Below, in pieces: positions 13,310 through 54,874 of a stretch of DNA of 64,000 nucleotides. The stretch comes from Klebsiella phage fENko-Kae01. A program made the translations under genes and the position numbers. The stretch lies in the sequence record OR228459.1; one strand, written 5' to 3'. The notes under the pieces are model-generated. The model was given only the letters and a program-made list of their open reading frames with translations. It had not been told where the DNA came from and did not search any database. The first letter of the stretch is position 1; every line of letters starts with the position of its first letter.

Positions 13310-14652
13310 GTAATATCACGCTTACGGACAAGCAACAAGAAGTATATGATGATTTCATAGACCGAGTACACAACTTTCCGGGTCGTTCCGAATGTGTTCT
13401 AGTTGGTTATGCTGGTACTGGTAAAACAACACTAGTAGCTGAAATTGTCGAAAGTTTATATAGAGGCTATAATATAGCTGTAACATCACCAACACATAAA
13501 GCAAACTCGGTCATCCGAAAAATGCTTACACAAAATGTTGGCCTAAGTGCACAAGATGCACAAGTAAGTACTATCCATTCTTTTTTAGGATTGAAACTAG
13601 TTTATGAAAAAAATCGTCAAGTACTAAAGCATGATCCACAATCGAAAAATAGTACATCTATGGTTGATGTTCTTATCGTCGATGAATGTTCTATGATTTC
13701 TGAAGAATTGTATCAGCATATCGTTGACCAGATGTATCGTGTTCGACGTGCTATTTTGTTCGTGGGAGATTCCTGTCAGTTACCACCCGTTGAAGCGGAA
13801 GGTACTATTGGTGAATCTAAACTAAGTCCGACCTTTAATGTACCAGTAAAATATGAACTTACTGAAGTACTTCGTCAAGCGTTGGATAATCCAATTATTA
13901 GTATCGCAACTGCGATTCGTGAGTGTATTGGAACTAATGGTGATCCATTGTCAATCCTTGATACAACTTACGGACTTGATACCATCATCCCAATAGATGA
14001 TGAACAAGTATTCTTGGATGTATATAAAGAAATGATTCTTGAGCATAAGGGTTCGTCTAAGAAAATCTTTGATTTTGTTCAAGAAAATAAGATTATTGCG
14101 TACACAAACTATCGTGTTAGCCTTTCTAATATTTATATCCGAAGCGAATTATTTGATAAACATCAAGACGTTGAATTCGTAAAAGGTGAACCAATTGTCT
14201 TTGATACTGTTACTGAGAACTGCCCCTATGCGAATCAGGAAATTATTCAATGTCCTGAAGTACGCAAAGAGAGTTTCTTGGGGATTGATTGTTGGCAATT
14301 CAAACTACCTAATGGTAACTATATTCTAGGTGTTGGGCCAGAGTCAAAACAAGGTCTCGACGACTACTTAGATGATTTGGTGAAGAAGATTGAAAAGAAA
14401 GATATGAATCCTCTAACCAAACGTGCATATCAATGGCAAGACTATTACATTATCAAAAACAAAATCAACATCATTAACTATCCATATGCTACGACAGCAC
14501 ATAAATCACAAGGTAGTACTTTTGATAATATTTGGTTTGATACTGATTTCATCGAACGCATTCGTAATAATGATACCAAATGTCGTATCATTTATACTGC
14601 GATGACTCGCCCACGATACAATGTTATGTTCCGTAAAAATGGAATGTTCTAA
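13306..14652 (+). CDS. dda: SF1B DNA helicase, Dda-like
   Basis: Walker A GYAGTGKTT, Walker B LIVDECSM, C-terminal SF1 motifs (TAHKSQGSTFD). Confidence 0.8.
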   Translation: MSNITLTDKQQEVYDDFIDRVHNFPGRSECVLVGYAGTGKTTLVAEIVESLYRGYNIAVTSPTHKANSVIRKMLTQNVGLSAQDAQVSTIHSFLGLKLVYEKNRQVLKHDPQSKNSTSMVDVLIVDECSMISEELYQHIVDQMYRVRRAILFVGDSCQLPPVEAEGTIGESKLSPTFNVPVKYELTEVLRQALDNPIISIATAIRECIGTNGDPLSILDTTYGLDTIIPIDDEQVFLDVYKEMILEHKGSSKKIFDFVQENKIIAYTNYRVSLSNIYIRSELFDKHQDVEFVKGEPIVFDTVTENCPYANQEIIQCPEVRKESFLGIDCWQFKLPNGNYILGVGPESKQGLDDYLDDLVKKIEKKDMNPLTKRAYQWQDYYIIKNKINIINYPYATTAHKSQGSTFDNIWFDTDFIERIRNNDTKCRIIYTAMTRPRYNVMFRKNGMF

Positions 14653-14855
14653 TGAAAGATAAAGAAGAATATGAATATCAAGCTCATAAATTCGTGTTCA
14701 GTAAAACCGTTGGTAAACAGTACTGCGTATATTGTGGTTTAGTGAATACCAATAATGATTTCACGAAATGGGCGGTAGGAAAAGGGTGTTTGAATGCTTT
14801 ACACCCTTCATATAAAAGTGTTAAACGGAAATACACTAATCGTTTTGATTTTTAA
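14652..14855 (+). CDS. hypothetical small Cys-containing protein
   Basis: 67 aa, CVYCG...C pattern. Confidence 0.4.
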   Translation: MKDKEEYEYQAHKFVFSKTVGKQYCVYCGLVNTNNDFTKWAVGKGCLNALHPSYKSVKRKYTNRFDF

Positions 14856-14893
14856 AAATAAATAAGAAAAAGTGTTCTTTATGGAGAAATAAG

Positions 14894-15433
14894 ATGAACA
14901 ATTTATTCAAAGCATTTACAATCAAGGTTCCCGGTCAAGATCTAGATGATAAGCGTTTCTTCGAGTATGAAGATTTCGATTCATCCGATATGACCACACC
15001 AACTGACGAACAAGTGCTAGCGAAAGCTATCGCTTATACTCGTATGCAACAAATCAAGCGTAAGCTATCAGAACTAACTGTACCAATTTATTGCACTGTT
15101 GAATTTGCAACAGAAGGTACAGCAAGTACTGTTCCATCAGATGCTACTATTACTGTTGGTTACATTAGCTACGAGCCATTTGTTAGTACTGCTGACCCGA
15201 TTCCAGATGAAGAATCTGCACAAATTACTGCTGCTGAAGAGGCAATCAAGAAAATCATTGATGATGCAATGGGTAGTGAACTAGTTCAAGAAATGGCTGC
15301 TGTACAGAAAATCACATCACGTACTATTACGCCTCTACTAACTAAGGAAGAAAGTTATCGTGATGTATATATGGATTACATTGATGTACCTTCCGTCACC
15401 GTATCCAGTACTGTAGCATTCGTTAAACTATAA
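14894..15433 (+). CDS. hypothetical protein
   Basis: 179 aa, AGAAATAAG then ATG. Confidence 0.5.
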   Translation: MNNLFKAFTIKVPGQDLDDKRFFEYEDFDSSDMTTPTDEQVLAKAIAYTRMQQIKRKLSELTVPIYCTVEFATEGTASTVPSDATITVGYISYEPFVSTADPIPDEESAQITAAEEAIKKIIDDAMGSELVQEMAAVQKITSRTITPLLTKEESYRDVYMDYIDVPSVTVSSTVAFVKL

Positions 15434-15443
15434 TATTTTTAGC

Positions 15444-15656
15444 ATGGAGTCTATTGACATGGAACAGAAAGCCTTTTATAATCGTATGTATGAAAACCGT
15501 GAAGCATTTGAAAAAGTGATTTACGAGTTGGAACAAATGATTGACCAAGCACCTAATGCTCGCACACGCACCCAAGCTGAGTTGGCTAAGAACCAACTTA
15601 TTCAGGTACAAATGATTGCTGATGCATTTCGTGAATATAGTAACAAAAAGGGTTGA
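15444..15656 (+). CDS. hypothetical small protein
   Basis: 70 aa ORF. Confidence 0.4.
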   Translation: MESIDMEQKAFYNRMYENREAFEKVIYELEQMIDQAPNARTRTQAELAKNQLIQVQMIADAFREYSNKKG

Positions 15657-15668
15657 CAGCCCTTTTTA
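15645..15668 (+). terminator. hairpin plus T-tract with a TTGACA -35 in its loop (terminator-promoter fusion)
   Basis: AAAAAGGG-TTGACAG-CCCTTTTT. Confidence 0.4.
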
Positions 15669-15681
15669 AATGACATATAAT
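15653..15681 (+). promoter_or_regulatory. sigma70-type promoter
   Basis: TTGACA-17 bp-TATAAT upstream of the IF3-like gene. Confidence 0.6.
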
Positions 15682-15715
15682 ATACATAACTTAATACGAC
15701 TGGAGTCTATAATAC

Positions 15716-16222
15716 ATGAAAGAAATTATTGCCAATAAAGAAATCAAAGCTAAAACTGTTCGTCTAGTCACTGGCAGTGGTAGTGATGTAGTGGCAATTT
15801 CAGAAGCACTTAACCGTGCTGACGCATTGGGTCTTGACCTCATTCAAGTGAATGATGGTGATGTGCCTGTGGTTAAAATTGTGGATTTGAACAAACACAA
15901 GTTCGAACTCAAACAAGCAGAAAAAGAAGCACAACGTAAGCAGCGTCAGAACGTAACGCAAGTTAAAGAAGTTCAGTTCTCTTTCAAAACACAAGAGAAT
16001 GATCTTAAAGTAAAAGCGAAATCTGCTTCCAAATTCCTTTCAGAAGGAAAACATGTTCGTGTCGTAATGGCAGTTGAAGGGCGTATCGCTGGTAACCAAG
16101 CACTACTAGAACAGAATACATCCTTCTTGAAACAATTCGTAAATCGTCTCGGTGATGTAGAATTTGTTCAAAATGTTGAAGTACAGGGCAAAAAAGCCAC
16201 GTGTGTAATCAAGAACAAATAA
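15716..16222 (+). CDS. infC: translation initiation factor IF-3 homolog
   Basis: 168 aa, collinear with bacterial IF3 N- and C-domains (EIKAKTVRL...DLIQV..P.VKI.D..K; Q..VTQVKEVQF; L.EGKHVRVV). Confidence 0.8.
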   Translation: MKEIIANKEIKAKTVRLVTGSGSDVVAISEALNRADALGLDLIQVNDGDVPVVKIVDLNKHKFELKQAEKEAQRKQRQNVTQVKEVQFSFKTQENDLKVKAKSASKFLSEGKHVRVVMAVEGRIAGNQALLEQNTSFLKQFVNRLGDVEFVQNVEVQGKKATCVIKNK

Positions 16223-16234
16223 CGAGGTATTAAT

Positions 16235-16786
16235 ATGAAACAACTTGAAGTACAGGAAGTATTCTCCCTAGATTCATATAGTGTTATCAAAGCATCTTAT
16301 GGGGAATCTAATTATTACATCGCTGGTAAACATGACATTACTGACTACGTTAATGCTGTAGCACGTGGTTCACAAGAGCGTAATGTCAATAAGAATGTAC
16401 TTGAAGAAGGTTTACGTTTATTCTTCAGGCATAATCCCGAAAAAGATGTACTTAATGTACCCACATTCGACCTAGTACTGTATGATGACCCAAACACTTC
16501 TGCTGAATATGTTATGGAAATGTGTATGGATCTATTTCATTACAATGAGGAACAGGCAGAAGCAGTTGTTAAAGCTCTAAACGGTAAAGAACATTGCTAT
16601 GCAGTTGGCTCTTTCACTGAAGAAATGTGTATTACTTATGCATCAATGTTCATGAATGGAAATCAGCAGCTAAATCAAAATCTTGGGGTTGACTATATCC
16701 CCAATCCAATTAAGCCTCAAAGCTATGAAGCAGCGATGGCAACGTTAGAAAACTTAATCCGTCGCGATTACCCTAACGATATCTAA
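16235..16786 (+). CDS. clpS: ClpS-like ClpAP adaptor domain protein with ~70-aa N-terminal extension
   Basis: C-terminal half (PTFDLVLYDDPNTSAEYVMEMCMDLFHY..EQAEAVV...G...VGSFTEEMC) matches the ClpS core. Confidence 0.72.
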   Translation: MKQLEVQEVFSLDSYSVIKASYGESNYYIAGKHDITDYVNAVARGSQERNVNKNVLEEGLRLFFRHNPEKDVLNVPTFDLVLYDDPNTSAEYVMEMCMDLFHYNEEQAEAVVKALNGKEHCYAVGSFTEEMCITYASMFMNGNQQLNQNLGVDYIPNPIKPQSYEAAMATLENLIRRDYPNDI

Positions 16787-16793
16787 TCAAATA

Positions 16794-18948
<2,155 letters not shown>

Positions 18949-33209: not shown

Positions 33210-33238
33210 TTGACAAGCCAACCAGATATAGATATAAT
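33210..33238 (+). promoter_or_regulatory. sigma70-type promoter
   Basis: TTGACA-17-TATAAT. Confidence 0.6.
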
Positions 33239-54763: not shown

Positions 54764-54839
54764 GGGCCAGTAGCTCACGTGCGGTTAGAGCAGACCCCTC
54801 ATAAGGGTAAGGTACGGTGTTCGACTCACCGCTGGCTCA
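54764..54839 (+). tRNA. tRNA with CAU anticodon (Met, or Ile2 if lysidinylated)
   Basis: acceptor GGGCCAG/CTGGCTC, D-arm GCTC...GAGC, anticodon arm ACCC-CTCATAA-GGGT, T-arm CGGTG-TTCGACT-CACCG; CCA not encoded. Confidence 0.75.
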
Positions 54840-54874
54840 CTACATAACATTATATACAATTTGAAGAATCAATA

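Follow-up and report, generated by a model that had tools for sequence, protein, structure and literature searches.

A full-length, two-domain homologue of translation initiation factor IF3 in Klebsiella phage fENko-Kae01: conserved residues, a derived C-domain loop and linkage to Clp-system genes

Introduction

Components of the 30S initiation machinery that are encoded by huge phages, such as bS21 and further translation genes, are thought to redirect host ribosomes (PMC6375957, PMC7162821), and the factors IF1 and IF3 of translation initiation have been listed among the genes implicated in redirecting host translation (PMC7162821). The subject of this work is one such gene, which encodes an IF3 homologue at positions 15716 to 16222 of a stretch of 64,000 nucleotides from Klebsiella phage fENko-Kae01 (sequence record OR228459.1); the whole stretch is referred to as the window. 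Phage IF3 is already known by annotation and comparative genomics, and has been for over a decade, since the RaK2 genome. For instance, the CBB paper of 2017 lists IF-3 in phages CBB, GAP32, 121Q, PBECO4 and Rak2 (PMC5259590), and a survey of jumbo phages mentions phage IF3 as well as a KTSC protein and a phage ClpS (PMC7824862).

Several residues of bacterial IF3 have been assigned to individual functions. In E. coli IF3, D106 and K110 are implicated in ribosome interaction and R112 in 30S binding and subunit dissociation, while Y75 is critical (PMC3401457). R25, which is invariant, and R66, which is well conserved, both touch the elbow of the initiator tRNA (PMC9723500). R131 belongs to an exposed loop for which a contact with mRNA has been proposed, and this residue has a part in discriminating start codons; the position holds R or K even in mitochondrial IF3, a factor that works on a bacterial-type small subunit and has lysine there (PMC3401457). 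Moreover, cellular infC starts with AUU or AUC, which is the target of IF3 autoregulation (PMC5499595).

The phage protein shares with bacterial IF3 (E. coli; T. thermophilus, 5lmn) the two domains, the predicted fold and the basic linker in the form of a long helix, as well as the equivalents of R25, K72, Y75 (as F), D106, K110 and R133. Unlike E. coli IF3, it is devoid of the basic N-terminal tail and of R99, R129 and R147, has E at the position of R131 and carries a three-residue insertion after the G-R motif. Like the mitochondrial factors (human mtIF3, yeast Aim23p; Foldseek E 4e-10), it constitutes a divergent member of the IF3 family, but these are only 16-17% identical to it, feature N- and C-terminal extensions and retain K at the R131 position. 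The additions made here to the existing knowledge are modest. They encompass the clade-specific loss of a basic residue at R131 together with the loop insertion, a probable independence of AUU autoregulation, the conservation of the block IF3-(bS21)-ClpS-KTSC and the pairing of ClpX with IF3 in Atu_ph07-type phages.

Identity and predicted fold of the phage IF3

The open reading frame (ORF) at 15716..16222 encodes a full-length, two-domain member of the IF3 family, the parts of which are located as follows.

15716..16222, plus strand: coding sequence of the IF3 homologue (168 amino acids, ATG start, TAA stop; from the ORF listing)
15734..15931, plus strand: IF3 N-terminal domain, residues 7-72 (Pfam IF3_N), the initiator-tRNA elbow domain
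15887..15955, plus strand: long basic linker helix, residues 58-80 (DSSP on the model; overlaps the end of the Pfam N-domain)
15956..16216, plus strand: IF3 C-terminal domain, residues 81-167 (Pfam IF3_C), the 30S-binding, anti-association domain
16076..16105, plus strand: derived C-domain loop, with E121 (GAA, 16076-16078) at the position of E. coli R131 and a three-residue insertion after G122-R123

Since an in-frame TAA lies two codons upstream, the ATG at 15716 is the sole possible start of the gene. Both domains are recovered by their Pfam profiles above the respective cut-offs: IF3_N (PF05198) matches residues 7-72 with 62.0 bits (cut-off 26.9; profile positions 2-70 of 70), and IF3_C (PF00707) matches residues 81-167 with 54.5 bits (cut-off 34.8; profile positions 1-85 of 86). 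In addition, the NCBIfam equivalog for infC, TIGR00168, covers residues 5-165 with positions 6-165 of its 170 at 111.2 bits against a cut-off of 60, and the alignment of the phage protein with PHROG 9787, 'translation initiation factor', runs from one end to the other (E = 2e-62). Its identity to E. coli IF3 amounts to 31% over 165 columns (BLASTP), while a phmmer search of the PDB sequences yielded IF3 chains only, the best of them, on the 30S subunit, with E of about 1e-19.

The structural prediction is in line with this assignment. In an AlphaFold2 model derived from an alignment of 55 sequences (mean pLDDT 75.5), the N-domain adopts the order beta-beta-alpha-beta-beta and the C-domain the order beta-alpha-beta-alpha-beta-beta, with a helix at residues 58-80 according to DSSP. 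The best Foldseek match of the model is 5lmn_X, which is IF3 in the 30S pre-initiation complex of T. thermophilus (E 4.8e-13), and the per-domain TM-scores are 0.80 to 1tif for the N-domain and 0.81 to 1tig for the C-domain. An initial annotation, made from the letters of this DNA and a list of its open reading frames, had proposed a 168-residue IF3 homologue spanning both domains and had set the profile search for IF3_N and IF3_C beforehand as a test. The ORF listing places this frame exactly at 15716-16222 on the plus strand, both domains were recovered, and profile, structure and synteny evidence concur on the two-domain identity.

Conserved residues and the derived R131 loop

Residue conservation was examined in the alignment of 55 Rak2-type IF3s, comprising the window protein, 51 database clusters and the proteins of RaK2, 121Q and XaC1. 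Positions are given in E. coli numbering; the E. coli reference sequence used matches PDB chain 8jsg_A save at one position. For a broader view, a representative set was used that consists of the window protein and the 150 best representatives from a search of 1.84 billion sequences. Among the 55 Rak2-type proteins, 11 columns are invariant and a further 38 nearly invariant. The equivalents of R25, K72, D106, K110 and R133 retain the E. coli residue in all 55, while that of R66 is K in every case, K being likewise the most frequent residue there among the IF3 representatives. R112 corresponds to K in 53 proteins and to R in two, R116 to K in 53/55 and G132 to G in 51/55; at Y75, 40 proteins have Y and 15 have F, the window protein being one of the latter (F63). 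As judged from this alignment, Rak2-type IF3 has kept most of the residues to which a role in 30S contact or at the initiator-tRNA elbow has been assigned in the literature. This includes the C-domain residues needed for 30S binding, to which the initial annotation had pointed and which are present as invariant D106, K110 and R133 and as K at R112 and R116 in nearly all members.

The loop around R131 is altered throughout the clade. None of the 55 proteins has R or K at this position, which is instead occupied by V (15), Q (13), E (9), T (5), I (4), A (3) or other non-basic residues (6). Moreover, the E134 position is variable and three additional residues follow the G-R motif. The Munch subgroup has A and E at the positions of R129 and R131, whereas most of the Rak2-like clade has K and V, Q or T. 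In the representative set, 17 of the 20 insertion-bearing IF3s are non-basic at 131, as opposed to R or K in 110 of the 128 proteins that lack the insertion; the other 18 of these 128 (about 14%) are likewise devoid of a basic residue there. The basic residue at 131 concerns a single function and is no defining trait of the IF3 family. The IF3s of Atu_ph07 and Phosso retain the canonical R-F-K-G-R-E motif, hence the R131 change is specific to the Rak2-type lineage. Taken as a hint, the R131 loop is the sole feature of the sequence that suggests a functional difference between Rak2-type IF3 and host IF3.

Distribution and origin

Bases 14500-18000 of the window are 99.5% identical to the Salmonella phages Munch, PHA46, 7t3 and SE_PL, which are jumbo myoviruses of ~337-350 kb related to Klebsiella phage RaK2. 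In Munch, the coding sequence CPT_Munch_344 with identical coordinates is annotated as 'translation initiation factor 3' and its neighbour as 'adaptor protein ClpS'. The same gene is represented by RaK2 ORF153, 121Q gp47, CBB_318 and the IF3 genes of GAP32 and PBECO4, which together with the Munch gene belong to PHROG 9787. Over 155 aligned residues, the window protein is 100% identical to the product of Munch, 7t3 and PHA46, while its identity to the others named here is 52-62%; it has synteny, promoter position and the derived R131 loop in common with them. Homologues were detected by tblastn in 93 phage records, among them RaK2, K64-1, 121Q, PBECO4, GAP32, CBB, XaC1 and Atu_ph07 as well as jumbo phages of Yersinia, Erwinia and Serratia.

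The Atu_ph07-type IF3s, which are found in Agrobacterium phage Atu_ph07, Sinorhizobium phage Phosso and the metagenomic contig L019, are full-length and 35-41% identical to the window protein. Their genes resemble that of the window in having a promoter-like site about 63 nucleotides upstream, topoisomerase II nearby and an adjoining Clp-system gene. Unlike the window gene, they start with GTG or TTG, encode the R-F-K-G-R-E loop without insertion, and have a ClpX ATPase gene upstream rather than a ClpS-like adaptor gene downstream.

With respect to its origin, the G+C content of the gene (37-38%) equals that of the neighbouring genes and the identity to E. coli IF3 is only 31%, both of which argue against a recent capture from the host. 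A recent capture from an enterobacterial host was therefore rejected, the synteny with Vibrio and Xanthomonas phages being a further reason. By these comparisons, IF3 is an old resident of the Rak2-like phage group, and the conservation of its sequence shows that purifying selection has acted on it throughout this clade of phages of ~350 kb, which is large and old. For the best matches among the 1.84 billion representatives, which carry no taxonomy, all readable contigs were either of jumbo-phage context or too short to tell. One record, 'Acinetobacter phage MD-2021a' (L008, CAKLQF020000017.1), was discarded as a source of phage IF3, for it is a mislabelled bacterial fragment with thrS-infC-rpmI-rplT and metabolic genes.

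Promoter, ribosome-binding site and start codon

The region ahead of the IF3 gene contains a promoter, a ribosome-binding site and a candidate hairpin.

15653..15681, plus strand: sigma70-type promoter TTGACA-17 nt-TATAAT (12/12), 35 nucleotides upstream of the IF3 ATG
15702..15705, plus strand: Shine-Dalgarno sequence GGAG, 10 nucleotides upstream of the ATG, annotated as ribosome-binding site in Munch
15645..15667, plus strand: hairpin AAAAAGGGUU-GAC-AGCCCUUUUU (RNA fold; spans the preceding gene's stop codon and overlaps the -35 hexamer; low confidence)

The initial annotation had placed the gene behind a sigma70 promoter of its own, and the site at 15653-15681 indeed agrees with the consensus at 12 of 12 positions. 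Eight such perfect sites are present in the window, all on the plus strand, as compared with 0.02 expected from shuffled sequences; hence they are almost certainly genuine promoters read by the host RNA polymerase, and this part of the genome looks like one with a dense set of host-polymerase (early) promoters. Sigma70-like sites also precede IF3 in relatives, with matches of 12/12 in 121Q, 10/12 in RaK2, 10/12 in Phosso and 9/12 in Atu_ph07. Besides the two perfect sites near IF3, the others of the window are located at 33210, 33742, 36929, 42699, 56999 and 59154 (plus strand).

The second of the two nearby sites, a perfect TTGACA-17-TATAAT at 15454-15482 (plus strand), lies 200 nucleotides upstream of the IF3 promoter and encloses the annotated ATG (15459) of a 65-residue gene (15459..15656). 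Due to this position, its transcript would start at about 15489, inside the 65-residue ORF. Either this small gene is served by upstream read-through only, or the promoter at 15454-15482 also feeds IF3. The hairpin at 15645..15667 might act as a weak terminator before the IF3 promoter. A terminator scan did not call it, and the fold of 101 nucleotides is not significant against shuffles (z = -0.7); the presence of a clear intrinsic terminator separating IF3 from the upstream gene was accordingly rejected, as the only candidate is this weak, uncalled and non-significant hairpin.

Among 12 phage IF3 genes inspected, 11 have GGAG at a distance of 7-11 nucleotides upstream, while L019 has GGAAAG, and the start codons are ATG, GTG or TTG. 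The phage gene thus shows neither trait of the cellular infC locus: unlike cellular infC, it starts with AUG rather than AUU or AUC, and instead of the thrS-infC-rpmI-rplT context it resides in a block of replication genes beside ClpS and KTSC. On account of its AUG start, it would stand outside IF3 autoregulation. An Rfam scan of the window detected five tRNAs only and neither a leader nor a riboswitch near IF3. In the window, all 32 annotated starts that were checked in register are ATG, and no dependence on non-canonical starts is seen among these 32, gene callers being unlikely to reveal it as they would not call such starts.

Gene neighbourhood

Downstream of IF3, two further members of a conserved block follow on the same strand.

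16235..16786, plus strand: ClpS-like gene (183 amino acids), 12 nucleotides downstream of IF3; core residues 76-148 after a 75-residue N-terminal extension
16845..17378, plus strand: gene of a KTSC-domain protein (177 amino acids; Pfam KTSC 50 bits), the third conserved member of the block

The order of the block is DHFR, (RNase H), Dda helicase, two small genes, IF3, (bS21), ClpS-like, KTSC, (structural proteins) and topoisomerase II. It is kept in Munch, RaK2, 121Q and XaC1, in Vibrio phage 2.275.O (L014/L016) and in the metagenomic contigs L010, L012 and L015, the IF3s of which are 34-48% identical to the window protein. The ClpS-like gene directly downstream, which the initial annotation had likewise noted, is probably co-transcribed with IF3. 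Its product matches the Pfam profile ClpS (PF02617) with 32.7 bits against a cut-off of 23 and also matches PHROG 15940, whereas the best NCBIfam ClpS equivalog reaches 19.3 bits, below its cut-off of 149. Each of the eight Rak2-type loci long enough to reach beyond IF3 has a gene at the ClpS position, the 195-residue gene of L012 having no Pfam match on record.

The N-degron pocket of E. coli ClpS is formed by N34, D35, D36, M40 and H66. In alignments to E. coli ClpS, the window protein has N34 replaced by D, D36 by P, M40 by A and H66 by N, with D35 alone kept. Judging by its profile matches, the protein is a divergent member of the ClpS fold, and it may recognise something other than classical N-degrons since the pocket residues are not conserved. 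The KTSC gene retains its position after ClpS in L010, L012, L014 and L015, i.e. down to an IF3 identity of 34%, and the KTSC protein of Munch (AZU98290.1) has been cited as a possible translation or rescue factor (PMC7824862).

A different protein from IF3, bS21, is absent from the block of the window and was observed at the corresponding place in two relatives. In Vibrio phage 2.275.O, its gene (MG592671.1, 32234-32479) lies between IF3 and ClpS, and in the short contig L013 it directly follows IF3 (1107-1364). Two parts of the machinery for 30S initiation are thereby brought together within a single block of phage genes. In the Atu_ph07-type phages, a ClpX gene (zf-C4_ClpX and AAA_2 domains) is found immediately upstream of IF3, namely at 2143-3402 of L004 (Atu_ph07), 2631-3890 of L007 (Phosso) and 3691-4941 of L019. 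This ClpX-IF3 pair is close to topoisomerase II, and the ClpS gene of Atu_ph07 is 4 kb away. A linkage of IF3 with genes of the Clp system is thus seen in two jumbo-phage lineages that have diverged from each other. Because both blocks adjoin topoisomerase II, inherited gene order suffices to explain this linkage.

Further translation-related genes in the window

The tRNA-Met(CAU) at 54764-54840 (plus strand) has a paired G1:C72 and an anticodon stem with C29-31:G39-41 instead of the three G:C pairs oriented as in initiators. Its identity could be that of an elongator Met tRNA or of an Ile(CAU) tRNA. The idea that the phage IF3 has an initiator tRNA of the phage as its partner was rejected, since this tRNA is not initiator-like. 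The region of about 46.9-54.7 kb is not strictly collinear with 269-281 kb of Munch: the tRNA-Thr is offset by 21 nucleotides, the tRNA-Met is positioned about 3.9 kb earlier than expected from Munch, and small frame offsets occur in the first 5 kb of the window. ARAGORN did not find the tRNA-Arg of Munch in the window. By homology to CPT_Munch_385 and CPT_Munch_390, two genes annotated as peptidyl-tRNA hydrolases in Munch map to about 47.3-50.4 kb of the window. For the 64 kb that correspond to the window, the Munch annotation further lists an exoribonuclease and several tRNAs, which amounts to more translation-related cargo near the IF3 block.

Proposed function and alternative explanations

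The explanation favoured here, and on balance a probable one, is that the product of the ORF is a functional IF3 with both domains, belonging to a Rak2-like jumbo myovirus (Munch/7t3 group), and that it would be expressed early by the host RNA polymerase and act on the host 30S subunit. According to this proposal, the gene would be transcribed early by the host enzyme, and its AUG start would free the phage factor from the AUU/AUC autoregulation that caps the level of cellular IF3. Total IF3 activity might then rise above the set-point of the host or outlast the shut-off of host functions. The C-domain would be placed on the platform of the host 30S subunit and the N-domain on the elbow of the initiator tRNA. 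In this position, the phage factor could prevent subunit association, act in recycling and proofread 30S initiation complexes kinetically. Through it, 30S subunits would stay free and be recycled, and initiation complexes would form faster on phage mRNAs throughout the long cycle of a jumbo phage. If discrimination is retained, the excess of IF3 activity would moreover repress the AUU-started infC of the host and thereby bring about its gradual replacement by the phage factor. The block of IF3, sometimes bS21, the ClpS-like adaptor and KTSC plausibly remodels the host small subunit and its factors.

Several points weigh against this proposal. The loop is three residues longer than in the canonical factor, is never basic at R131 within the clade and is variable at E134, so the phage protein may not act as a plain IF3. 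Furthermore, R99, R129 and R147 of E. coli are replaced by S, A and Q in the window protein, positions that vary among IF3 representatives too. The binding to 30S, the timing of expression and the effect on the level of host IF3 are all inferred. In the literature that could be searched, genome descriptions and comparative surveys were found but no experiment on a phage IF3, and the Sharanji paper of 2025 states that the function of IF3 in phages 'cannot be definitively stated' (PMC11895373).

The same loop is the basis of an alternative that is possible, if rather unlikely, namely that the phage factor binds the host 30S subunit and that its remodelled R131 loop shifts the inspection of mRNA or start codon towards phage mRNAs or away from those of the host. 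In favour of such an altered specificity, a basic R131 is missing from all 55 Rak2-like proteins, where E134 is variable and three residues are inserted after G-R, and the insertion goes along with a non-basic residue at 131 (17/20, versus 110/128 basic without it). The site concerned belongs to the exposed loop for which mRNA contact is proposed and takes part in start-codon discrimination (PMC3401457), and the canonical state of the Atu_ph07-type factors confines the change to the Rak2-type lineage. It is opposed by the starts in the window, all 32 of those checked being ATG without a sign of non-canonical dependence (which gene callers would not call), and by the roughly 14% of non-insertion representatives that are also non-basic at 131. 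Nor is an altered tRNA partner apparent, as the tRNA-Met of the window is not an initiator. The suggestion of the initial annotation that the phage copy might relax discrimination for non-canonical starts is thus partially supported by the derived loop, while a need of the phage for such starts is not borne out by these ATG starts. A reprogramming of initiation in favour of phage mRNAs and a replacement of host IF3, the other functional ideas of that annotation, stand as hypotheses. An unlikely extension of the altered-specificity alternative envisages a specialised IF3 of changed fidelity within a block for taking over the small subunit, in which the ClpS-like protein (or ClpX) delivers a host initiation component, e.g. 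host IF3, to Clp proteases and the phage factor takes its place. The recurrent adjacency of IF3 and Clp genes in two lineages fits this delivery, yet inherited gene order explains it equally well.

A role mainly in ribosome rescue or anti-hibernation, in which the phage IF3, instead of tuning initiation, splits or keeps apart stalled, vacant or hibernating 70S or 100S ribosomes of the stressed host together with phage peptidyl-tRNA hydrolases, is quite unlikely as a separate function. It is suggested by the two peptidyl-tRNA hydrolases and several tRNAs that Munch annotates in the matching stretch, by the S30EA/HPF-type protein of the 121Q-like phage Sharanji (PMC11895373) and by the conserved equivalents of the subunit-dissociation residues R112 and K110, but no rescue-specific sequence feature was found in the phage IF3. 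As this activity belongs to normal IF3 function (cf. PMC7824862), it overlaps with the favoured explanation instead of competing with it. The opposite effect, a dominant-negative factor that takes the IF3 site on the host 30S subunit, fails at a later step and so blocks host translation, is very improbable. The loss of C-domain arginines (R99 to S, R129 to A, R131 to E, R147 to Q) and the early-type promoter would fit it, whereas the tRNA-elbow residues of the N-domain are invariant, which would be needless in a plain blocker, and the gene is linked in some relatives to bS21, a positive component of initiation. Besides, phage mRNAs use ordinary GGAG/ATG starts, and phage translation would therefore stop as well. 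That the gene is a non-functional passenger or a bacterial contaminant of the assembly is hardly credible. The mislabelled 'Acinetobacter phage MD-2021a' record demonstrates that such artefacts exist, but here the gene is found in a syntenic phage block in four near-identical isolates and dozens of related genomes, its G+C content is phage-like, its ORF is intact, its functional residues are conserved, and it has a promoter and a ribosome-binding site of its own. Conservation and synteny effectively refute this possibility.

Concluding remarks

The gene has been annotated since RaK2 and discussed repeatedly (PMC5259590, PMC7824862, PMC7162821, PMC11895373), hence little is added by this locus as a discovery. 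Nevertheless, phage initiation factors are among the clearest hints that large phages directly control the ribosomes of their hosts. The clade-wide loss of the basic residue at R131 provides a concrete, testable prediction regarding the discrimination of start codons or mRNAs. Since the IF3 gene is present in cultivable phages of Salmonella, E. coli and Klebsiella, i.e. of tractable hosts for which infC genetics, toeprinting and cryo-electron microscopy of the 30S subunit are routine, it constitutes a good experimental entry point. Its value lies in offering a tractable system for the question of which roles phage-encoded initiation factors play.

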